A stretch of 64,000 nucleotides of DNA. It comes from an uncultured virus (IMG/VR IMGVR_UViG_3300009168_000043) (Duplodnaviria > Heunggongvirae > Uroviricota > Caudoviricetes). Each line of letters starts with the position of its first letter. The first letter of the stretch is position 1. The translations under genes and the position numbers were made by a program. Below the pieces are notes generated by a model, which ran no database searches, was not told where the DNA came from, and saw only the letters and a list, made by a program, of their open reading frames with translations. Below are positions 5,544-60,418 of the stretch, piece by piece. The stretch lies in the IMG/VR virus record IMGVR_UViG_3300009168_000043. One strand, written 5' to 3'.

Positions 5544-5564
5544 TTTTGTTTTATTAATTGTATA

Positions 5565-5602
5565 CAAATATATCAAAAAAATTTAAAATTTAAAAATCTT
5601 TT
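5565..5602 (-). promoter_or_regulatory. Bacteroidota sigma70-type promoter (-7 TATATTTG with upstream AAAGATTTT); representative of a family of about 20 sites
   Basis: TATATTTG on minus strand here and at 11862, 15632, 18026, 24450, 26276, 28524, 32947; TAnnTTTAC variants near 37752, 43109, 46361, 49520, 51570, 51830, 52164, 53516, 54430, 55257, 57279. Matches the Bacteroidota TAnnTTTG consensus and lies upstream of gene starts. Confidence 0.75.
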
Positions 5603-5620
5603 TCGTAAAAGTTAAAAACT

Positions 5621-5908
5621 TTATGGAACAAAAAGAGGTTTTTGACCATTAGGCCAGGGACTTTTTACCCAAGTCCACTTCACTGTATCTTTCAGTGTAT
5701 CTTTAACTAACAGTATTCTAATATCACCATTTAACGCATCTTTTTGACCCTCAAAATAAGCCTGTTCTGTAACTTTTATTATTTCATTCGTTACATTTCT
5801 TATCTCGCTGAAACGTCTTTCGACCTCCTTATCGTGGATAAAAATTAAAACTGGAATCGATACAGCTACAAGAACTGCTAGTACTAAGTTAAATGGATCT
5901 ATTTTCAT
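5621..5908 (-). CDS. Hypothetical protein with N-terminal membrane anchor
   Basis: Hydrophobic N-terminus. Confidence 0.7.
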   Translation of the reverse strand: MKIDPFNLVLAVLVAVSIPVLIFIHDKEVERRFSEIRNVTNEIIKVTEQAYFEGQKDALNGDIRILLVKDTLKDTVKWTWVKSPWPNGQKPLFVP

Positions 5909-17430: not shown

Positions 17431-17441
17431 AGTATCAGAGG

Positions 17442-17515
17442 TGGGCCCCACCGGGAATGATCCGATAACCCCCAGATTATGAGTCTGGTGCTCTAACCAG
17501 TTGAGCTAGAGGCCC
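17442..17515 (-). tRNA. tRNA with CAT anticodon (Ile2/lysidine-type or Met)
   Basis: GGGCCTC-TA-GCTC AACTGGTTA GAGC-A-CCAGA CTCATAA TCTGG-GGGTT-ATCGG ATCATTC CCGGT-GGGGCCC-A cloverleaf; CCA not encoded. Confidence 0.9.
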
Positions 17516-18003: not shown

Positions 18004-18100
18004 TTATATATTTTAAATTCCTTTACAAATATAATAATAAAATTGTAATAATAAAAATCTTTTATGAAAAAGTTATAAAAAAGTTTTAACAACTTATAGA

Positions 18101-32920: not shown

Positions 32921-32985
32921 GATAGAATCGTTTTATTATTACAATACAAATATAACCAAAAATTTTTAATTAAATTAATCTTTTC

Positions 32986-33456
32986 TTAACTTTTTTTTAC
33001 ATTTTTATTCAAATAGTGTTCTGCTAAAAGCTTTACAGTTTTCCTATCAAAAGTACCTGCTCCTATCACAATATACACCACTTGTTTGTTAGAGTATTTA
33101 GAATTATCTTGCATTAAACTGTGTGCTAACAATATCTGTTTCTTTGCAATATGTGCACATCCAAACTTAACATATTCTGGAAAAAATTCTGCAATATATC
33201 CGTTTACTCTGATTACCGATGCTGCGGATTCTATTTCATCTAATGTGGCCAATCGAAACTTCCCTGATATACACCAGATGCCATCTCCATTGATAAATAT
33301 GACGTCTGGTTCATCACCGGTCATTCCCGAATGTGATTCGGATCTTTTAACTACTTCATACGTCCCAGGCCGAACACCCATGCATCCTGGAGTTAAGTCA
33401 GCTGAATTTTCTATGGTTATCCAATCGCCTTCATTAAATTTTTGGTTAATTTTCAT
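32986..33456 (-). CDS. Hypothetical protein (paralog of 43239-43910)
   Basis: GDW.T., FR.AT.DEI, YV.FGCA.I.KK, IG.G.F shared. Confidence 0.75.
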   Translation of the reverse strand: MKINQKFNEGDWITIENSADLTPGCMGVRPGTYEVVKRSESHSGMTGDEPDVIFINGDGIWCISGKFRLATLDEIESAASVIRVNGYIAEFFPEYVKFGCAHIAKKQILLAHSLMQDNSKYSNKQVVYIVIGAGTFDRKTVKLLAEHYLNKNVKKS

Positions 33457-49960: not shown

Positions 49961-50040
49961 TTTCCCTGTGAAGAAAACTGAGGTAGTGCACGTAAACTAA
50001 CAGCTTACTGCTTTCCCTGTGAAGAAAACTGAGGTAGTGC
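49961..50040. repeat. Perfect 29-bp direct repeat x2 with 22-bp spacer
   Basis: TTTCCCTGTGAAGAAAACTGAGGTAGTGC at 49961-49989 and 50012-50040. Confidence 0.9.
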
Positions 50041-50139
50041 TGGCTGTAATCATCGATAAATATAAGACGTGCTAAAACAGAAGATCTTTGTTATGTCTTA
50101 AATTTAAGATGAAAATTAAAAAACCTATCACCTCACACA

Positions 50140-50241
50140 TCAGTGTTTATCACACACGCTTTCAGACATTCTCTGATCACCTTTAGATTATTTTTAATGG
50201 TATTATACCACCCAATTCCCACACCATCAGAGCGCATCTGA
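50140..50241. repeat. Phased TCAGA/TCTGA element, copy 7
   Basis: TCAGA 50162, TCTGA 50172; TCAGA 50227, TCTGA 50237. Confidence 0.6.
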
Positions 50242-50542
50242 AAAGCGAATTTAAACACAATAAAGATGATCAGAAAAAGAACAAAACAAAAGGGCAGTAA
50301 CACATTGAGTGCCCTACCCTACCCTTTTGCCTATGGACGATCAGTTACAGAAAACAGAAACCCGATGTTTGTAAATCTGGGTTCCAATGAAAACCTACAA
50401 TTGGATGGCTTTGTTCGTTTTTGGTTAAACACGTTGATTACTTAATCAACGTATTGTGAACCTGAATTTCTTTCTATTGATAGATTAAATCAGAACGCGA
50501 ATTAGACTGTGATTCTGAAGATTTAAAGCATCAATAATCTGC

Positions 50543-50701
50543 TTACACTGGAATACTAACAAGTTGCCAGTCGTTTGGATCCTTTACAGAGTTAGCCATT
50601 ATGAGCGTGGCATGTCTTTCATCTCCATAACACTCTACTGTAAAAGTGACACGTGAAACACCGCGTATGTTCTTAAAGATGTAAGTTTTTAATGGTGGCA
50701 T
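50543..50701 (-). CDS. Small hypothetical protein (52 aa)
   Basis: Start moved to MPPLKTYIF; the upstream part of the track ORF lies in a GC-rich structured region. Confidence 0.5.
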   Translation of the reverse strand: MPPLKTYIFKNIRGVSRVTFTVECYGDERHATLIMANSVKDPNDWQLVSIPV

Positions 50702-50728
50702 AAGATTAGTATTTATACAGTTAAAAAC

Positions 50729-51005
50729 AAGAGGGAGTCTGCCGGATTGTGCTGTACCGAACGGTATCGGATTGTGCTGTACCGGGAGAACTCCCTCCGC
50801 CTGATGGTTCCACGGATCATATATATTCGGTGCCCGATTGCCGGAAGCGCTTATATCTAGAATCATGCGCGCCGGACTGGCGTTACCGAGGAACCTTTTA
50901 CCCGCCAAGATAATAATAAAACCGCAATTCCACAGGATGCCCCGACATGATAGTCGATTACGTTGGGCGATTCGGAAGCGGCAACGGCCAGCGGGATTAT
51001 CTACA
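50729..51005 (-). ncRNA. Candidate structured RNA with twin identical repeats
   Basis: GC-rich island; GAGGGAGT (50731-38) pairs with ACTCCCTC (50790-97) enclosing CGGATTGTGCTGTACCG x2 (50743-59, 50768-84); T-run follows on minus strand. Confidence 0.4.
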
Positions 51006-51008
51006 TAT

Positions 51009-51038
51009 AACAGGGTCGGAAATGTTACCGACCCTGTT
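51009..51038 (-). terminator. Hairpin terminator downstream of the 51056 gene
   Basis: AACAGGGTCGG AAATGTTA CCGACCCTGTT. Confidence 0.65.
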
Positions 51039-51055
51039 TGTCTTTCCGCGCCGGA

Positions 51056-51526
51056 TTAAACTGTTGCTTCAGAAGAAGCAGCTTCGGCAACCGGGGCAGT
51101 TTCAGCAGGAACAATAACGGTAAGATCTTTTTCGAAGCGGTAGTAACGGTTTCCGTTAGCTCCTTTGATCTTTGCTTCCTGGCGTTCTGGTTTGGCATAA
51201 AAATCGAAGATACGTTGTACCTTACCGGTAGTCATCTTTGCATCCGGCTTGCTCGATTCTTTGAAAGAAACTTCGGTACCTACGCGGATTCCTTTGGTGT
51301 CATCTTTGAAAGATTCGATGGTCCGGGTGGTTTCGTTCGGTTTGTTTTTTGCTTTCTTTTCAACTGCGGGAGCGGCTTCTGATGTTACAGCTTCTGCTGC
51401 AATCATTTCCTGAGCGGCTTCAACGGGAGCTTCAACTTTTTCAACTGCAGGAGCTTGAACTTCAACTGCTACTTCTTCTGCAACTGCGGCAGAACTTGCG
51501 TGATTTTTTTTGTTTTTGTTTGACAT
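51056..51526 (-). CDS. Paralog family C
   Basis: Ala/Glu-rich N-terminus; KPNETTRTIESFKDDTKGIRVG ... GKVQRIF ... RQEAKIKG.NG.RYYRFEKD. Confidence 0.85.
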   Translation of the reverse strand: MSNKNKKNHASSAAVAEEVAVEVQAPAVEKVEAPVEAAQEMIAAEAVTSEAAPAVEKKAKNKPNETTRTIESFKDDTKGIRVGTEVSFKESSKPDAKMTTGKVQRIFDFYAKPERQEAKIKGANGNRYYRFEKDLTVIVPAETAPVAEAASSEATV

Positions 51527-51557
51527 CTTCTTTGTTTTTTAGAAGTGAATAATTAAA

Positions 51558-51862
51558 TAATTTCGATATGTAAATGTAATACAATTTCGCGTAATAAAAA
51601 AATCTTTTAGCAATTATTTTTAGAACTTTTTGAACTTTTTTTAAACTTCAACTTCAAAGTTTTCTTTCATCCAATTACCGAAGTCAGGCGCTTGAACTGC
51701 ATCGGACATTTCCATTTCCAAAGCAAGCGTATCAGATTCAAAGGCTTCTCCAGCTATGAAAGCTGCTCTCATGTCTGATAAAGTGTAAAGTTTTTCTTCC
51801 ATCTTATGTGTTTTTTTTAATTTCGATATGTAAATGTAATACAATTTCGCGTAATAAAAAAA
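51558..51862 (-). repeat. Identical 45-bp promoter-containing repeat x2 (51558-51602, 51818-51862)
   Basis: TAATTTCGATATGTAAATGTAATACAATTTCGCGTAATAAAAAAA; related copy near 52155-52198. Confidence 0.85.
51641..51802 (-). CDS. Small acidic hypothetical protein
   Basis: Start moved to MEEKLY; own promoter. Confidence 0.65.
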   Translation of the reverse strand: MEEKLYTLSDMRAAFIAGEAFESDTLALEMEMSDAVQAPDFGNWMKENFEVEV

Positions 51863-51899
51863 CCTTTCGCCAACTATTTTCGAACTATTTTATAGATCT

Positions 51900-52133
51900 T
51901 TAGTTGCCATAGTTCACCTCAAAGTCTATATACTCGTATCCGTAATGGGATTCGAACCAGGCCGCGATCTCTAAGATCTGTTCTGGAAAGTACCCCTCAT
52001 CATCACGTCTAGCAGTCGGCAGTCCAGTGATGGAACTGTAGTGCTTGTGGCAGTAGTTGGATACCTGCGCCATGTTAGGCTCGAGACCATACTCCTTGAT
52101 GATGTTTGCGACGTGTTCGTTTATCTTCTTCAT
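51900..52133 (-). CDS. Hypothetical protein
   Basis: Start moved to MKKINE; own promoter. Confidence 0.65.
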   Translation of the reverse strand: MKKINEHVANIIKEYGLEPNMAQVSNYCHKHYSSITGLPTARRDDEGYFPEQILEIAAWFESHYGYEYIDFEVNYGN

Positions 52134-52233
52134 TGTGATCTTTATTTGTTTTATTTTCGATAAGTAAAAGTAACAAATATTCACGTAATAAAAAAACCTT
52201 TTGCCAACTATTTTATAACTATTTTACGCTTTA

Positions 52234-52324
52234 TCAGACACCCTCAGACGATGCACCATATTAAAGGTATTAATATACCACAATACCATCTCACGTAATC
52301 TGTCACCAACAGATTATTGTCAGA
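52234..52324. repeat. Phased TCAGA/TCTGA element, copy 8
   Basis: TCAGA 52234, 52244; TCTGT 52299, ACAGA 52309, TCAGA 52320. Confidence 0.6.
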
Positions 52325-52428
52325 AACGATCGAATGGTGTTTTTTCTTACAATTCCAATAAAAAAAGGGAGGAAAGCCCAATCATAAGCTACTCCTCCCA
52401 ACTATACAAATGCTACTTACTTCCAGTT

Positions 52429-52875
52429 TCAGTTCCTCACACCCCTAACGTACCAGTTCTCAAGCGTGACGAATCCATTTGTGTGCTCTTCCAACCTGTA
52501 CCTTCCTCGTATGGTTTCCAGTTCTCTCTGTATGATCTTCTGTTTGATAGGGTCAAGACGATATACCTCGTTATAGTTAAGCGGACTGTCAACATCACAC
52601 AGCTGCATTATCCTCTTCATTCTATCCATGATGTCTAACCACACATCGTTCATTCCAGCCTGAACCTCTTCTCTTAACTTTTCAGATGGTGTATACCTCC
52701 ATATCAGATCTCCCATGATCTCAACGTTCCTAGCCACGGTCTGTGAGTACTGTTTCTTCTTTTCTTCCATTATCGAACCGATTTCAGATGGTATAACGGT
52801 TGATGGAAACGTATCGATCGTTATCTTTCTAATCGGTTCAAACTCCTGTTGGTGTGGTGAATACGTCTTTTTCAT
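52429..52875 (-). CDS. Hypothetical protein
   Basis: ATG ORF overlapping the upstream stop. Confidence 0.7.
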   Translation of the reverse strand: MKKTYSPHQQEFEPIRKITIDTFPSTVIPSEIGSIMEEKKKQYSQTVARNVEIMGDLIWRYTPSEKLREEVQAGMNDVWLDIMDRMKRIMQLCDVDSPLNYNEVYRLDPIKQKIIQRELETIRGRYRLEEHTNGFVTLENWYVRGVRN

Positions 52876-53489
52876 CGCGGGCTGTATTTATAGATTGCTT
52901 GCACGTACCTTTCTCTGTTCATCAGTTCCTTGAGCCTCTCGTTCTTCCAGTGTTGAGACCTTATCCAGCTCTCTAAATCGGTACCATCGAACGGTACGTC
53001 TTCTACCCTGTCTCCCAACACCCTTACGTAACATATATCCATTATCTTAAGAATACTAACAACAAGCCTTGCGTCTTCCTGCTTCGTAGTATCTATGATG
53101 GACTTTATTTCGGTTGCCATCTCTAATATCTTTTGGGCGTCCCTTACTGCCCTATCGTACTCCGAGTGCAGGTTCTGATAGTGAGTGTCCATGTGAGATA
53201 TAGAAGTACACAGTTCCAACAACCTCTCGATCTGTGTCTGTTTCGGCTCATCGTAGAATATGTCTCCATACACATCGTACCTGACAGAATCTTCCATCTC
53301 ACTGTAAGTGCTGTTAGCATACTCCCTACGTAACTGATCAAGAGTCCTCTTCTTCGGCAACCTCTCGAAATGATCTACCTCTCCCAATCTCTTTTTTCTT
53401 CTAAGCTCCCGAGATGCTTTCTTTACATCGTAAGGTTCGGGAACTGGTACCGATTCTACTCCTATTGGTTCGTACATCTTGTTTTTCAT
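52872..53489 (-). CDS. Hypothetical coiled-coil protein
   Basis: Start moved to MKNKMY after promoter. Confidence 0.7.
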   Translation of the reverse strand: MKNKMYEPIGVESVPVPEPYDVKKASRELRRKKRLGEVDHFERLPKKRTLDQLRREYANSTYSEMEDSVRYDVYGDIFYDEPKQTQIERLLELCTSISHMDTHYQNLHSEYDRAVRDAQKILEMATEIKSIIDTTKQEDARLVVSILKIMDICYVRVLGDRVEDVPFDGTDLESWIRSQHWKNERLKELMNRERYVQAIYKYSPR

Positions 53490-53579
53490 AACGGTATTTG
53501 TTTTAATTTCGATAGGTAAATATAACAATTCCTTTCGACACTCCAAAACCCTAGACCAACTATTTCACAACTATTTTTG

Positions 53580-53924
53580 CTACTTAGGTTCATCCGCAAT
53601 CACGTACAGGTAACCTATCATACCGTTCTTCTTCCTGTCTGATCGAGTAGTTACCCACACGAACTGTACAGTGAACTCCTTTCCGGTCTCCCACTCATCT
53701 ATACCGATCATCGTGATCGTCTGCGTGGCTCCGGTAGAATACCTCTCCGTAACGGTCTTTCCAGAGTACCGCTCACTGAGCCCCTTCACCATGTTTAACA
53801 ACCTGTCACCCTTCACATCAAACACTGGATAACCATAATCACTGGCATCAGGATAGATCCTGTGAGAGCTTCTCTCAACTTCTCTGACTCCGAACAACAA
53901 CTCTTTGTAAACTGACATGGTCAA
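53580..53924 (-). CDS. Hypothetical protein
   Basis: ORF in packed run. Confidence 0.65.
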   Translation of the reverse strand: MTMSVYKELLFGVREVERSSHRIYPDASDYGYPVFDVKGDRLLNMVKGLSERYSGKTVTERYSTGATQTITMIGIDEWETGKEFTVQFVWVTTRSDRKKNGMIGYLYVIADEPK

Positions 53925-54103
53925 ACCTCCTCTAAAAATAACGTTACCGGACCAAACTCGTTGTTCTTAACCCTTTCGTGATAGTGCTCGTAAACTATCC
54001 TACCCTCAACGTCTCCCTCCGTGTTACCCGGAACAGAAAGTATGCTTTCTCTGTACAGCTCCCAAGTCGGTTGGGCAAATGCTCTGATCTCTTCCTCTTT
54101 CAT
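53921..54103 (-). CDS. Hypothetical protein
   Basis: ATG ORF. Confidence 0.6.
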   Translation of the reverse strand: MKEEEIRAFAQPTWELYRESILSVPGNTEGDVEGRIVYEHYHERVKNNEFGPVTLFLEEV

Positions 54104-54121
54104 GATCTTATATTTAGACGA

Positions 54122-54403
54122 TTAATAGTTCTCTTCTATGTGCTTCTCTAACAGGGCCACGCACTCTTGATAAGTTCCGGAACCCAACACGATCTGTGAC
54201 CGCCCCCAGTTTACTAATGCTTCACATGAGATGTTTATCACTTCCATGTTAACCGGATCGACTGTCGCAGTAGTGTTAATGTAGAACGCATCGGCCTTCC
54301 CAGTTTCAAGGTTCAAAAGCGGATACACCAACTGTCTGTGTTCAAAGAATATCAGGTTCCTTGCAGGCTTTTTCAACTTATCCAGTGCTTCTTGCTTGTT
54401 CAT
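54122..54403 (-). CDS. Hypothetical protein
   Basis: ATG ORF after repeat promoter. Confidence 0.7.
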   Translation of the reverse strand: MNKQEALDKLKKPARNLIFFEHRQLVYPLLNLETGKADAFYINTTATVDPVNMEVINISCEALVNWGRSQIVLGSGTYQECVALLEKHIEENY

Positions 54404-54478
54404 AGTTACGTTTTATTTAATTTGATTAGGTAAATGTAACAATTCCTTTCGACACTCCAAAACCCTAGACCAACTATT

Positions 54479-54811
54479 TTACAACTCTTTCAACGTGATC
54501 TTTTTCAACATCTCTTCGAGCTTGTCATCCGGCATCTTCTCTACCAGGGCTACTATAAGTGTTGTAGAATCATAAGGTCTTACCCTTCTCTTTATGACCT
54601 TGAGAACAAAGGCCATCACCATCTTCATAAAGCCATTGGTAATGTCACTGATCGGCTCCTTACTGTAATCTTTGAAACCATCAGCTTTACTATCGTAAAG
54701 CTCTACCGAAACGTCCTCTTCCATCTTGCTTAACACTCCACGAACTATCAGATTGGCTCCTTTCGAACCACCAAGATCTATATTTATGCTGTACCTTCTT
54801 CTCTTTCCCAT
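54479..54811 (-). CDS. Hypothetical protein
   Basis: ATG ORF. Confidence 0.65.
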   Translation of the reverse strand: MGKRRRYSINIDLGGSKGANLIVRGVLSKMEEDVSVELYDSKADGFKDYSKEPISDITNGFMKMVMAFVLKVIKRRVRPYDSTTLIVALVEKMPDDKLEEMLKKITLKEL

Positions 54812-54866
54812 GACTATCCCGTTTTAAACGTTACACTTATTGAACTCGTTTTCCCACTCTTCTCTT

Positions 54867-55232
54867 CTACTCAACATAAGGCCTCGGATCTTCACTCCAT
54901 CCGAACAGCGTACCATCCTTCATCGCCCTCCAAGACGCTATCCTAGCCTTCTTGAACTGGTACGGATACACTTCCCTCTTGTAATCTTCTACCGACTTGA
55001 TTGGTATCAGTACAGGAGCTCCACTCTCCCAACTCACGATACAGTAAGAGTAACACTCTATAGACTCCCCTACGAATCCACTGAAGCTTGACACAGCTTC
55101 CAACAACATACGAGAACCGTGCAACCTCTGTGAATCAACGACTGCATCTTTCATCCACCAATCGCTACTGTCTCTCAACACTTCTCCTACCGATAACGGA
55201 TATCTTTCTTCAACGTCTTCTTTCTTTGCCAT
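54867..55232 (-). CDS. Hypothetical protein
   Basis: ATG ORF after repeat promoter. Confidence 0.65.
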   Translation of the reverse strand: MAKKEDVEERYPLSVGEVLRDSSDWWMKDAVVDSQRLHGSRMLLEAVSSFSGFVGESIECYSYCIVSWESGAPVLIPIKSVEDYKREVYPYQFKKARIASWRAMKDGTLFGWSEDPRPYVE

Positions 55233-55336
55233 GATTGATTTATTAAATTTGATTAGGTAAATATAACAATTCCTTTCGACACTCCAAAATCCTTTTCAAA
55301 CTATTTTCCAACTATATTCAAACTGTTTTTCTCTAC

Positions 55337-55375
55337 ACTCAGACACCACTCAGACACCACTCAGACACCCTCTGA
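55337..55375. repeat. Tandem 11-mer ACTCAGACACC x3 (phased TCAGA array)
   Basis: TCAGA at 55339, 55350, 55361; TCTGA at 55371. Confidence 0.8.
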
Positions 55376-55988
55376 CTCACCCTTCTCCACAATCCACATG
55401 TACAACCATCCCCACACCCTCGCATCACCCTGTCATCCCCCTCACTCAACTTCCCAGATTCAAAAAATACATCTCACACCCAACTCTCGCCCCCTCTTCA
55501 AGACATTCTACATTTTCCCCTAAACAGACACCAGAACCTCATTAACCAAACAAACACACTAGGACACTATCTAAGACACACTGTCCTACCTACTCCAATC
55601 ACTCTTCTCTTCTCACCACTTTCGTGCAGAACAAGACATCCCAGTGAACTTCAACATCAGGTGCTCACACTACATCTCATCCATAAGAACACTAACATCA
55701 AACCACCACATCACCAGACTCTAATACAACACAACAACCAACAGAACCAACTCACAGAACATCACAAAAAACAATATCACTGGGTTTTGAACTCGGGACG
55801 AAAAAATTCAAGAAAGGTGGACGACTAAGTGCGTCAGCGCGTGTCTGTCGTCTCACTCAGTGCACCCAATCTCACCAGACACGTAGCTACACCATCAAAA
55901 AGAGCTCATCGTCTGAGTGTATCTGAGTGGTACCCTGACAATTGAACCGCTGTAGCGCCGTCGAGAAAAAGTTTTGTAACTTTTAGTG

Positions 55989-56026
55989 AAAAGATTTTTA
56001 ATTCCCAAATACATTGGTTATATTTG
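55989..56026 (+). promoter_or_regulatory. Bacteroidota-type promoter on the plus strand pointing into an ORF-free region
   Basis: AAAAGATTTT followed by TATATTTG at 56019-56026, same architecture as the minus-strand promoters. Confidence 0.7.
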
Positions 56027-56032
56027 TAATGT

Positions 56033-56600
56033 CATTAAGGTAAATAGTACGGTCGGTGACACACAAAGCTACACAGCAACACACAGACACATTTACAGAC
56101 GGGTTGGGGATCGCTGTTGACGGTTCCCCAGAGGGTAGACTCCGTCCTGCTTTATATTATAAAGCGTGTTTTCATTCAAAATAACGTCAGTTAGAAGAAA
56201 ACGACACAGCTAACCATAATGTTTGTGGTCTTATCATCCAATGAGTTGTACGTCGCTATCACGGTTTTGCCCGACGGCTCGAGTCTTACGGTTAAAAATC
56301 TGGGATTCTGGAACTCCAATCAGTTAGGGTACCTCGGAATCACGTGAAGGAGCAGAAGAAGTGTTAGGCCCGTGAAGATCTCCCGTGAGTGTCTTCACAT
56401 AGTGCATCTGGATGGTCTCGAAGACACACAACGGATGCAAGTACGGAGACGATAACCGTAGAAGCTGAGGTGCACCGCTGTGGTAAGCCCTCTCGAACCG
56501 TGTGGTCTCAGACGTGTGCAGACTGAGAGGCGCTTCTGGATTACACCCGGTATCTACTCCTTCGTAAAAAGGAGGGATCTAACCAATCCCTCCTTTCTGT
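56033..56600 (+). ncRNA. Candidate ~560-nt structured ncRNA
   Basis: Bracketed by a promoter and a terminator hairpin; no credible ORF; many nested helices (listed in findings). Confidence 0.6.
56566..56598. terminator. Bidirectional intrinsic terminator
   Basis: AAAAAGGAGGGAT CTAACCA ATCCCTCCTTT between the convergent ncRNA candidate and the 56621 gene. Confidence 0.75.
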
Positions 56601-56620
56601 GTTGTTTTCCGAAGTGTACC

Positions 56621-57256
56621 TTAGGCCTTTGCTTCTGTACCTTCGGTTTCTTTGTTAGCTTCCGGGGCCTGTACCGGTTCGATGGGTGCCGGAACGAAGA
56701 GGTTGATCTCTTCCTCGAACCTGTAAACCCTGTTACCGTTGTCCCCTAAGATCTTGGCTTCCTGACGAGGAGCTCCTTTGTGTTTGTACTTAGCCTCGTC
56801 GTAAAATTGGAAGATGCGTTGTACCGTACCCAGGCAGGTCTTGTTTGTGCCCTTTTCGGTGTAGGTGACCCGGGCGAGAGGGTTTTCCTTGGTGCCGGCC
56901 CGGATTCCCTTGGTGTCGATCGTGAAGGCCGGAATGGTGAAGGTGGTCTCACCTGGCTTCTTCTTTTCGATCTTTTCAACGGGAGCTTCAGGAGCATCGG
57001 GAGCTTTTTCTTCGGGAGCTTTTTCTTCGGGTGCGGAAGATCCTTCGGTTGTTCCAGTGGTGGCATCGCTAGCCACACCGGCCTGAAGGGTTTCTACTGC
57101 TCCCTGTGAAGCTTCCTTAGGTGCGCTAAGGCCAGCCATCCGGGTCTTCAACTGTTGCTTCTGGACTGCGGTCAGGTTTTTTACTGCCATTGCCACTGTA
57201 CACTCTTCCATTGTCATCTTAGAGATGGCGTCTTTTGTAACGTTCTTTGCTTCCAT
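56621..57256 (-). CDS. Paralog family C
   Basis: KPGETTFTIPAFTIDTKGIRAG ... GTVQRIF ... RQEAKILGDNGNRVYRFEEEI; A/E/P/K-rich linker. Confidence 0.85.
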   Translation of the reverse strand: MEAKNVTKDAISKMTMEECTVAMAVKNLTAVQKQQLKTRMAGLSAPKEASQGAVETLQAGVASDATTGTTEGSSAPEEKAPEEKAPDAPEAPVEKIEKKKPGETTFTIPAFTIDTKGIRAGTKENPLARVTYTEKGTNKTCLGTVQRIFQFYDEAKYKHKGAPRQEAKILGDNGNRVYRFEEEINLFVPAPIEPVQAPEANKETEGTEAKA

Positions 57257-57278
57257 AATGATAATTAATTAATGATGA

Positions 57279-57520
57279 GTAAATATAACAATATTCTCCG
57301 GGATAAAAAAATCCGGATGAACTTTTTTTGCAACTTTTTTTCCAGTATGTCAAAGACCTTTTTGTTCCATTTTCGATAAGTAAAGGTAACCATTTTCTCC
57401 GGGATAAAAAAACTTTTGGTGAACTTTTTTTAAACTTTTTTTGGTGACCTTTAAAAGAACTTTTTGTTTTATTCCAATGATTAAAAGTAACCATTTTCTC
57501 CGGGATAAAAAAACTTTTCG
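57279..57520 (-). repeat. Three promoter-like repeats with 101-bp period
   Basis: TTCTCCGGGATAAAAAA at 57294, 57395, 57496. Confidence 0.8.
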
Positions 57521-57994
57521 GCAACTTTTTTTGGTCTTTTTTAAAATGTGTGACGGCCCAGACGGCGTCTGTCTGTCGTGAGCCGCGGCTACCGTCTGCT
57601 GCGATGGGTCCGGAGGGTGCTGTCTGGGCCTCTATTATAAGCTGTCAGGCCTGACGGCGCTGACAGCGCTTAGCCTTTTTAATTTTTTTCTGGAAATTTT
57701 TTCGAGAGCTCTGTAGCCCTTTAGGTCTGTAGTTATATAGCGTTTATGTGTCTATATGTATATGTGATCGTTTTGGGATATATTTGTCTCTGTGCGATTT
57801 TCGTAGGTAGTTCTTACCTCTGTCTGAGAATGTGATGTTTTTGTGTCTAGAAAAAAATCCCGGGAAATTTTTTTTGGATCTGCAGCCTTTGCGACATCTG
57901 TAACTGTTACGAAACCGTTAATGTTTGATTAAAAAACGATTAATGTAAAAACCTTTTAGACAATACGTTATATATAACATAAAATCTTATATGT

Positions 57995-58240
57995 ATGAAG
58001 TTAGCAGTTGTGGTGATGTTGTTAGGAGTTTGTAGTAGGAGTGTTGTTATAGTAGATTCCAAGACTGGAGAGTCGTTGGTTGGAGTTGGGGTGGTGTGTG
58101 GTAGAGACACTTTGTTCTCTGACATGGATGGTTGTGTGAGTGTGGGGATTGGAGTAGATAGTGTTTGTGTATCGTATGTAAGTTATGAGGGTGGGATGGT
58201 AGAAGTGAGAGACACTGTTAGGATGGTGGTTGTGAAGTGA
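57995..58240 (+). CDS. Small secreted CarbopepD_reg_2-like protein
   Basis: Signal-like N-terminus; VDSKTGESLVGV.V ... SDMDG ... SYVSY resembles the N-terminal extension domain of Bacteroidota SusC/TonB receptors; ATATATAA at 57970. Confidence 0.55.
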   Translation: MKLAVVVMLLGVCSRSVVIVDSKTGESLVGVGVVCGRDTLFSDMDGCVSVGIGVDSVCVSYVSYEGGMVEVRDTVRMVVVK

Positions 58241-58706
58241 TGTCATCATCGAGTGCATAGATTGTGAAATCTGATGTGTGTTCGTCGTTTGTGTACTTTG
58301 TGTAGATCATTTTCACGGCCTGTCTGTTTCTGTTGTAGATCATTTTGACGATCGTTTTTTTTGTAGTGTCTTCTTCGTTTTTTGTGTAAGTGTGTTCTTC
58401 GGTTATCGTGTCGTTATCTGGAGTAAAGAGTGAGTTTAGGAATCTTATCTGTGAGACGTTCAGGTGGTTGACTTTTGTTAGGAGTATGTTTTCTGGTTTT
58501 GTTTTGAGTAATCGAGTGATGTCTGGTAGAACGGAAAGGTTTTTTGTTTCGTTTGCGTGTTTGAGGTTTTCGTACTGGTTTTCTTCCATCATTTTTTTCA
58601 GAGTGTCTGATGCCAGCTGTACAGCTTTTCTTCCTATTCCTATACTAGATAGTCCGAATTCTTTGTCCTGTTTTATCTCGTTGATCGATTCCCTTACTAG
58701 TTTCAT
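58218..58706 (-). CDS. Leader family B protein
   Basis: MKLVRESINEIKQDKEFGLSSIGIG; ATATATAA at 58717-58724. Confidence 0.8.
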   Translation of the reverse strand: MKLVRESINEIKQDKEFGLSSIGIGRKAVQLASDTLKKMMEENQYENLKHANETKNLSVLPDITRLLKTKPENILLTKVNHLNVSQIRFLNSLFTPDNDTITEEHTYTKNEEDTTKKTIVKMIYNRNRQAVKMIYTKYTNDEHTSDFTIYALDDDITSQPPS

Positions 58707-58863
58707 GGTGTTTGTTTTATATATTTAAGGGTTCGTACGTCGCCGGGAACCGTTGGACGTCTTTGGTGATAGAGGGGCTCCAGAGGCGAAGAGAAGGGTG
58801 AGAGACGCGTTTTGGGAGTCTTAGAGACTGAAAGATATATATTTTATATAACGTGATAGTACA

Positions 58864-59949
58864 ATGAAAGCAAGGTTAATCGTAAACGAGATAAAACAGG
58901 GGTTGGGTTCTGGAATGGAAGGTATTGGTGTGGGCAGGTCTGCATTGAGCAAGGGATACAAGAAGATGAAGGAAGTCTTCCCTGGTATAGAAGAGTTCGA
59001 GATACCGTTGGTAGAATTCGAGTGGTTTAAAGCGAGCGGCACTTTCTTTGGTAGTTTCGAGAGTGAAGAAGATGTGACTATAAGTCTTAGTCGTGATGAG
59101 ATGGAAGACGTATCGTCGATATCTGGAATACCGTTAAAAGATTTGGTCTACATAGATCCTGCTCACTACAGTCAAAAGTTTGCTGAAGATGCCACCATAG
59201 AGGGATTGTTACCGCTTAGTCAGTATTTGGATAGGTGTGATCACGTTAAGGTAGAGCTTAACACTAACGATCCACGTAGGATGTTAGAGAATAACAGTGT
59301 CGTGAGGTTTACGTTTGTGTGGTGGGAATCTGCGAGGTTTGGATACCTCGTGATAGAGAACGGCACGTACATTTTCTTGGTGTACGAAAGACAAAACGTA
59401 TCAGAGAGGAGGGTAAACGAGATAAGGACTGAAACAGAAGGTTCTGGTCTGGGGGCGATAGGTGCTGGTAGGGTTAAGATGTTATTTTCTGACTTTCTTA
59501 AGTCGTACGATCCATCGTTCAAGTTTAGAACCACGTTAGATAAAGATACGTTTCCAGGATCAACAGAAGATTTTTCTGTAAATTGCGCGAATCTAGCTGC
59601 TGAAGAGTTAGGAGTTTCTTTTAACAGGATTAAAAGAAAGGATTACGATTATATAACAGGACCTGCAAAGGTGGAGCTTAGGAAGATAATAGCTAATCCA
59701 GAGACCACCAAGCGTGATGTGATAATACAGCATCAGGACTTTAAAGAAGAAAAAGAGTATTCTGATGATGGAACATCTGTATCTGTTAAAGCAGTTCCAA
59801 CAGGAAGCTATTCCAACATTAAAGTTACGATAGTGAAGAATTTAGATCGTGGAGTAGTGATGTTACAGTATGACCTCAACGAAGAAGACGTTATGGATGA
59901 CGATTACGATGTAGACCTGTACGATCACGATGTTTACATGATAGTGTAA
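58864..59949 (+). CDS. Leader family B protein, two tandem units
   Basis: MKARLIVNEIKQGLGSGMEGIGVG and internal VSERRVNEIRTETEGSGLGAIGAG. Confidence 0.8.
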   Translation: MKARLIVNEIKQGLGSGMEGIGVGRSALSKGYKKMKEVFPGIEEFEIPLVEFEWFKASGTFFGSFESEEDVTISLSRDEMEDVSSISGIPLKDLVYIDPAHYSQKFAEDATIEGLLPLSQYLDRCDHVKVELNTNDPRRMLENNSVVRFTFVWWESARFGYLVIENGTYIFLVYERQNVSERRVNEIRTETEGSGLGAIGAGRVKMLFSDFLKSYDPSFKFRTTLDKDTFPGSTEDFSVNCANLAAEELGVSFNRIKRKDYDYITGPAKVELRKIIANPETTKRDVIIQHQDFKEEKEYSDDGTSVSVKAVPTGSYSNIKVTIVKNLDRGVVMLQYDLNEEDVMDDDYDVDLYDHDVYMIV

Positions 59950-59950
59950 T

Positions 59951-60418
59951 TCAAGGTCTTCTAAAACATATGTAGCTCATCCACTTTCCGTTCTCATCTG
60001 TGTAAGATAGGTAAGATACCCCGTATAAGTTGTTAGAAAGCAGTGTGACTGGCAGTTTAACGTTGGGGTAGTTAATGTTGAAAGTTATCTGGTTAAGCTC
60101 GTCTTTGTGATTGCCAGAAAGTCCCATTAGAACTATCACGTAGTCAAGCACCTTGACTGGTACCTTGTTTGTTTCTATGCAAACGATGTTTTTTGTAGAA
60201 GTATCTAAGGCTTTAGCTATCTTGCTTGGAATCTTCTTCATTTCTTTTTCGTAGGGCCAGTTTGTGCTGTTAAGGGGTTTGAGGTCTCCTATCGTGGAAT
60301 CTATTTGAACGGCCATCGTGTATGCTTTATAAAAAGACACTGCACCCACTCCTATAGAAGAAAGTGCCGATTCTCTGTCTTGTCTTATTTCGTTAAGTGA
60401 TTCTCTTACCAGTTTCAT
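59951..60418 (-). CDS. Leader family B protein
   Basis: MKLVRESLNEIRQDRESALSSIGVG (start moved). Confidence 0.8.
   Translation of the reverse strand: MKLVRESLNEIRQDRESALSSIGVGAVSFYKAYTMAVQIDSTIGDLKPLNSTNWPYEKEMKKIPSKIAKALDTSTKNIVCIETNKVPVKVLDYVIVLMGLSGNHKDELNQITFNINYPNVKLPVTLLSNNLYGVSYLSYTDENGKWMSYICFRRP

Follow-up and report, generated by a model that had tools for sequence, protein, structure and literature searches.

The stretch at positions 56033-56600 of the window (the whole 64,000-nt stretch of phage DNA analyzed in this work) is a real, somewhat unusual orphan transcription unit, and is not demonstrated as a structured RNA. An untranslated RNA from this stretch is plausible, and the reading tentatively preferred here is that the plus strand gives an untranslated RNA of ~535-565 nt, made early and functioning as RNA. 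The unit owes its credibility to its promoter, which resembles other promoters of the phage, rather than to its helices. This promoter family, the lack of coding signal, the outlying GC content, the position within the largest ORF-free gap and the terminator all speak for an untranslated transcription unit.

The window is AT-rich (GC ~33%) and reads as a large phage, with nearly all long ORFs carried on the minus strand. Its gene content includes a thymidylate synthase, an NAD-dependent ligase, an NAD synthase fusion, a glutathionylspermidine synthase, three radical-SAM proteins and a polymerase-beta-like protein, and a 590-aa phage protein has distant phage matches only (identity <=27%). A single tRNA-Met was found in the window by cmscan and ARAGORN (17440-17515, ~38 kb from the candidate stretch), and ARAGORN reported neither tRNA nor tmRNA inside the stretch itself. 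The stretch lies within a 10-kb region (50000-60000) of GC 0.40-0.49 in this 33% GC genome; since the phage's own promoter families occur both inside and outside this region, the region does not represent an assembly chimera.

Promoter elements of 70-90 nt, in two related families (A and B), occur upstream of many minus-strand genes (sites include 37735, 43092, 46343, 51810, 52146, 53497, 54409, 55236 and 57274). They combine an upstream block of the AAAATAGTT type with a -7 box of the TTGTTATATTTAC type, and the leaders that follow are A-rich and lack a Shine-Dalgarno sequence. The element at 55961-56034 (plus strand) is a family B copy (nhmmer E 5.7e-15, the copy itself being among the seeds), in which the conserved upstream block AAAAGATTTTTA precedes the -7 box TATATTTG (56019-56026) by 18 nt, and is the top-scoring member of its family, though used as a seed. 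Further strong family B copies lie at 5559-5630, 18018-18090 and 32939-33005, all on the minus strand; the plus-strand element aligns over ~65 nt with three minus-strand copies, and the likeness stops a few bases past the -7 box, as expected for promoters. This element had been described, from the sequence alone, as the only plus-strand host-type promoter, which is wrong as worded: the loose host-type motif TANNTTTG is present at chance level (82 occurrences, 82.6 expected), with 41 of these on the plus strand, and the octamer TATATTTG in its exact form is found 17 times where 6.1 are expected (a count reached by none of 100 shuffles), 8 times on the plus strand. Its uniqueness survives only as that of the sole plus-strand copy of the ~70-nt repeated promoter element in the window. 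Among 18 other promoter copies examined, 15 have an ORF of 51-211 aa within ~40 nt downstream, one has an ORF ~100 nt downstream and two are distal members of a tandem array; the copy ending at 56034 has only a 42-aa GTG ORF downstream. Sequence comparison thus places the promoter in the phage's own repeated promoter family, and its predicted activity would give the candidate the promoter of its own that an independent non-coding unit calls for.

At the other end of the unit lies a hairpin (56568-56596; 11-bp stem, 7-nt loop) preceded by an A-run and followed by a T-run, an arrangement that allows it to act as an intrinsic terminator in both directions; on the plus strand the T-run follows the stem, as in an intrinsic terminator closing a non-coding unit. 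A converging minus-strand gene (56621-57256, GC ~0.55) encoding a 211-aa protein has its stop 24 nt before the hairpin in its own reading direction, and this gene needs a terminator anyway. The hairpin read from the sequence is therefore real and fits the plus-strand unit, but it is common to the converging gene and is not specific to the unit or independent evidence for it. Past it, the plus strand is antisense to 56621-57256 and the next plus-strand ORF with coding signal starts only at 57995, so the stretch lacks the downstream same-strand gene that a riboswitch or attenuator leader would control. The 211-aa protein has one distant homologue (P0002), received no assignment from PDB, Atlas, Pfam or PHROGs, and gave a poor AlphaFold model (mean pLDDT 51.8). 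Its C-terminal domain (FT.DTKG.RAG ... YR) also ends a 463-aa protein of metagenome contig L001 (367-1758, plus strand); the context there is unrelated and only this domain is in common, so it behaves as a mobile domain.

The GC content of the stretch is 0.48, rising to 0.53 at 56346-56567, against 0.27 +/- 0.08 for the other non-coding gaps. It is the GC-richest non-coding DNA in the window, with the two GC-richest non-coding 200-nt windows falling in its 3' part. Its description as a GC-richer stretch is thereby borne out, and its GC content is exceptional for this phage's non-coding DNA. Because the whole 50-60 kb region is GC-elevated (local coding sequence 0.43, coding sequence adjoining the stretch 0.43-0.55), high GC is not specific to the candidate. 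The ORF-free gap that holds it (55233-56620, 1388 nt) is the largest in the window, its left edge marked by a family A promoter copy (55236-55320, minus strand) for the gene at 54867-55232. The locus is unusual in that the window's two largest true ORF-free, non-coding gaps flank one single, GC-rich gene.

The predicted untranslated transcript body (56035-56567, plus strand; ~533 nt, GC 0.48) has non-coding scores, no Rfam match and a fold z of -0.86. The sequence-only reading had called the unit highly structured and had itself proposed comparison with dinucleotide shuffles; for the body without its terminator (56033-56565) the comparison went against it, with z -0.86 on the plus strand (a fold energy equaled or bettered by 19 of 100 shuffles) and -0.68 on the minus strand (21 of 100). 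Over the full 568 nt, z was -1.95 on the plus strand, mainly owing to the terminator hairpin, and -2.21 on the minus strand; 200-nt windows containing the terminator gave -3.7 (plus) and -3.5 (minus), and a 200-nt sliding fold scan agreed with the part-wise scores. The 5' hairpins (56098-56165, plus strand) consist of GACGG...CCGTC around a GGGGA/UCCCC stem, then GCUUUAU-AUU-AUAAAGC, then GUGUUUUC, and the 5' part as a whole (56033-56185) is within chance (z -0.63). The hairpin at 56149-56165 with GUGUUUUC could be a weak early terminator yielding a ~140-nt RNA. The central stretch (56186-56345, plus strand) contains a 42-aa ATG ORF (56219-56347) preceded by an A-rich leader and has less structure than its shuffles (z +1.51; 186 of 200 shuffles fold at least as well).

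The 3' hairpin cluster (56346-56563, plus strand; GC 0.53) is closed by GAAGGAGCAGA/UCUACUCCUUC when folded alone, in which case its minimum-free-energy and centroid structures coincide (z -1.15). Its ensemble diversity is low on the plus strand (1 of 60 shuffles as low) and average on the minus strand (27 of 60), so that the domain is well defined on the plus strand only, which counts mildly for a plus-strand unit. Its closing helix is absent from the full-length fold, and 56340-56566 folds better on the minus strand (z -2.01) than on the plus strand (z -1.15). The placement of all 18 strings of the nine helices proposed from the sequence alone, of TATATTTG (56019-56026) and of the hairpin (56566-56598) is exact, and the helices fare unequally on folding. 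Three are robust in every context (GCTTTATA/TATAAAGC, GTGAAGA/TCTTCAC and TGCATCTG/CGGATGCA; pair probability 0.84-1.0), three are context-dependent and emerge only from folding a sub-domain by itself (GACGG/CCGTC, GAAGGAGCAGA/TCTACTCCTTC and TACGG/CCGTA), one has partial support (TGGGGATCG/CGGTTCCCCA, ~0.5) and two lack thermodynamic support (GAAGC/GCTTC and CCTCTC/GAGAGG, <=0.24). As matters stand, the chief lesson is that helices selected by hand from GC-rich sequence do not amount to evidence of structure.

Searches for known families and relatives covered Rfam and several sequence collections. Rfam 15 cmscan of the whole window returned nothing but a tRNA at gathering level, and at E<=10 on 55300-57000 returned two weak matches, both outside 56033-56600; with ARAGORN finding no tmRNA, this agrees with the earlier impression that hallmarks of RNase P, tmRNA and group I/II introns are absent, and the Rfam check proposed with that impression gave no family match in the stretch at either level. 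A sub-threshold match to Ms_AS-1 (56681-56778, plus strand; 25.6 bits against a gathering cutoff of 37, E 0.022) lies antisense within the 211-aa gene and is probably due to chance. No homologous DNA was found by blastn in the phage or plasmid collections, and tblastn of the 211-aa protein against the phage collection gave nothing. Viral contigs searched by protein, profile and two DNA patterns yielded nothing, genome contigs held no related DNA, and metagenome contigs returned only L001, with the 211-aa C-terminal domain in its unrelated context.

This lack of conservation in any collection searched, fold energies equal to those of shuffles on both strands, and a helix set of which 2 of 9 are unsupported and 3 of 9 context-dependent would also suit a functionless relic, in which a duplicated promoter fires into a decayed or recently acquired spacer and the helices are chance pairings in GC-rich DNA. 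Promoter copies in this phage are duplication-prone, as the three tandem copies at 57274-57540 illustrate, and the surrounding 10 kb differ in composition from the remaining phage sequence, which could point to a module acquired recently. A former gene, if any, must however have decayed fully, as no codon signal is left in any frame; moreover, the GC content has not drifted to the 0.27 typical of this phage's non-coding DNA, and the promoter copy is the best-scoring in its family (though a seed). We regard a relic as rather unlikely.

The wider 3-kb locus bears on a second alternative, a DNA-level element such as a replication origin or a genome-terminal (repeat) region. In that case the promoter would act in transcriptional activation or in priming, and the 530 nt would not function as a free RNA. 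From left to right the locus comprises the family A promoter of gene 54867-55232, a C-rich stretch, a GC island, the family B promoter, the candidate, the terminator, the 211-aa gene, tandem promoters, a second GC island and a G-rich stretch. Three perfect 11-nt tandem repeats of CACTCAGACAC (55336-55369, plus strand; TRF, 100% matches) lie in the very C-rich stretch upstream of the promoter, and the window contains 16 copies of CAGACAC where 5.2 are expected, 7 of them within the 750 nt of 55340-56090. On the far side, three tandem 101-nt family A promoter copies (57274-57540, minus strand) lie upstream of the 211-aa gene and are followed by a long GC-rich hairpin, so that repeats and hairpin together span 57270-57690. 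The GC skew reaches -0.79 at 55300-55499 and +0.76 at 58000-58199, mirror-image extremes around a skew-neutral 2-kb core, and the cumulative GC skew of the window has its minimum, and turns, at 55-56 kb. The two largest true ORF-free gaps around one gene are likewise in keeping with such an element. Only one public run was found to contain the region, X1, a DNA run labeled as freshwater sediment metagenome and probably the source sample; no RNA run turned up. The X1 assembly adds a weak hint, as the piece covering 55260-57415 has a depth of 14 (one figure per contig), compared with 8.2 and 8.78 in the flanking pieces and 7.1 and 5.7 elsewhere in the phage, and a 129-nt piece (57388-57516) has a depth of 21.7. 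This step hints at a two-copy segment (e.g. a terminal repeat), at collapsed tandem copies or at a segment shared with another genome. Taken together, the tandem promoters, iteron-like repeats, mirror-image skew and depth step may indicate where the genome has its origin or its ends.

Several properties of the locus argue against this alternative, which we consider unlikely. Origins and unwinding elements are usually AT-rich, whereas the stretch is the window's GC-richest non-coding DNA. Persistent RNA-DNA hybrids favor G-rich RNA, whereas the GC skew of the transcript is near 0 (0.03-0.10 across 56000-56600) and its 5' part is C/A-rich. The transcript runs into a strong terminator; phage skew largely tracks gene orientation, and only 8 kb of the window lie to the right of the turn; and the contig breaks coincide with repeated promoter sequence, so that the depth step has other possible causes. 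A transcript-primed origin should show a G-rich segment or an unwinding element, and the only AT-rich stretch here is the promoter itself. The replication-primer role that the sequence-only reading had offered as an alternative is weak for the same reasons, namely that the transcript is not G-rich and ends at a terminator, despite the adjoining iteron-like repeats and skew turn.

Other features of the locus were recorded alongside. The GC island at 57545-57690 (plus strand; GC 0.58), which comprises a long hairpin (57552-57632) and a second hairpin followed by a T-run, folds with z -4.32 on the plus strand (0 of 200 shuffles as stable) and -3.39 on the minus strand, has no Rfam match at E<=10, and is a stronger structured-element candidate than 56033-56600. 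Comparison of the GC islands at 55810-55965 and 57540-57695 gave no homology in either orientation. Weak inverted repeats link 55300-55800 with 57900-58300 (e.g. 55388-55424 with 58133-58169, 70% complementarity). An 81-aa ORF in the G-rich stretch (57995-58240, plus strand) has a gene-like codon score (0.14-0.23 per codon) and is probably a real plus-strand gene; it has no Pfam match, and its neighbors in the protein Atlas are clusters of carboxypeptidase-regulatory-like domains, mostly from Bacteroidota (scores 0.90-0.94), a hint at the host phylum. The divergent genes at 58218-58706 (minus strand) and 58864-59949 (plus strand) have a common N-terminal motif (..NEIKQ..G.GIGR..), of which a further occurrence lies inside the 361-aa protein. 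A perfect 16-nt inverted repeat (58667-58682 with 58885-58900) mirrors the motif, and the genes look like a small paralogous family.

Coding potential was assessed on both strands of the stretch. The plus strand is tiled by ORFs of 42, 42 and 45 aa, with an 89-aa ORF crossing the terminator into the antisense of the next gene. In a codon model built from local genes, the small ORFs score -0.17 to +0.005 per codon (-0.06 for the ATG ORF at 56219-56347), below the 5th percentile (0.083) of real 42-codon gene chunks, which average 0.26. The stop-masked best of six frames lies between -0.12 and +0.08 across 55410-56490 against an average of 0.20 for real genes, genetic code table 4 and a TAG=Q code opened no credible ORF, and Pfam gave no family for the 13 small ORFs submitted. 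The view taken from the sequence that no credible ORF is present thus holds, and protein coding is absent as it should be in a non-coding transcription unit. A pseudogene or a paralogue of a window gene was considered and set aside: translated gap fragments searched against all window ORFs gave only self-matches below E 0.02, and the masked codon scores are flat. The GTG ORF at 56056-56181 gave three matches, all to long proteins and one of them a row without an aligned stretch; these were judged spurious, the two inspected being tandem-repeat proteins with 7 and 14 matched stretches.

That the unit encodes one or more very small proteins, likeliest the 42-aa ATG product, is very doubtful: the low structure around this ATG would suit a translation start lacking a Shine-Dalgarno sequence, and other family B promoters precede ORFs of 51-98 aa, but besides the low codon scores, absent Pfam families and spurious matches just described, the opposite strand carries similar ORFs of 30, 38 and 42 aa, and 56195-56344 used as query found neither a homologue nor itself in the protein collection in which the neighboring 211-aa protein does find itself.

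The preferred reading, an untranslated plus-strand RNA, would work as follows. An orphan unit with a host-type promoter, opposed to the mostly minus-strand genes, would be transcribed from a start near 56035 to the two-way terminator at 56568-56596 that it shares with the converging 211-aa gene, and a fraction of transcripts may stop earlier, after the weak hairpin at 56149-56165. We infer that an RNA is made, that it is made early and that the molecule functions as RNA. Its accessible, binding part would be the C/A-rich 5' leader together with the unusually unstructured middle, and the GC-rich 3' hairpin cluster with the terminator may confer stability. Pairing of the C/A-rich 5' segment with the translation-start regions of 104 gene calls reached -28.0 kcal/mol at best, a value equaled or bettered by 7 of 15 shuffled seeds. 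This lack of better-than-shuffle trans-targets counts against an RNA function, as do a body that folds like shuffles on both strands, a 3' domain that folds better on the minus strand, the loss of its closing helix in the full-length fold, the lack of an Rfam match and of homologous DNA, and a terminator that the converging gene needs anyway. A more specific and quite improbable version would make the unit a phage RNA of ~0.55 kb that stands alone and belongs to no family, transcribed from an early host-type promoter within a 2.2-kb segment at ~2x genome depth, possibly a first-entering terminal repeat, with the compact 3' domain and open middle serving as a decoy, scaffold, replication or packaging RNA. 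If the RNA is real, it adds an unclassified long non-coding RNA to a phage lineage with essentially no relatives in current collections.

Among known systems, ColE1 RNA II and the R-loop origins oriF/oriG of phage T4 are transcript-primed origins. The candidate is like them in being a promoter-driven untranslated transcript of similar length near repeats and a GC-skew turn, and unlike them in having no G-rich hybrid tract, no AT-rich unwinding element downstream, a strong terminator in its path, and no initiator or RNase H evidence. GC-rich intergenic regions are used in AT-rich genomes to search for structured RNAs, a principle which the candidate fits as the GC-richest non-coding DNA of a 33% GC genome and from which it departs in that the adjoining coding sequence is also GC-elevated (0.43-0.55), leaving the signal unspecific.

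The sequence-only reading had likened the unit to ROOL, GOLLD and OLE, a likeness that holds for size class and fails on Rfam match and fold energy. In common with these RNAs the candidate has a size class of ~0.55 kb, no coding signal and a phage-borne setting. ROOL and GOLLD are reported to be encoded by prophages and by phages, frequently close to tRNA islands, in an account that draws the profiles of ROOL, GOLLD and OLE all from Rfam (PMC12286853). The tRNA-island setting, which in that account is typical and not strictly defining of ROOL and GOLLD (PMC12286853), is absent here, the sole tRNA being ~38 kb off. The candidate differs further in finding no match among the Rfam 15 models even at E<=10, and in being known from one sequence with a fold energy equal to shuffles, whereas these classes rest on extensive covariation. 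The unit should not be filed with ROOL, GOLLD or OLE.

Smaller phage RNAs offer a further comparison. Lambda OOP, P22 sar and phi29 pRNA are promoter-to-terminator phage non-coding RNAs of ~70-175 nt that overlap a target gene or have a defined structure. The candidate is unlike them in its length (~550 nt) and in overlapping no gene unless its terminator is read through, and is like them in its host-type promoter, its untranslated body, its intrinsic terminator and its orientation against the main direction of transcription.
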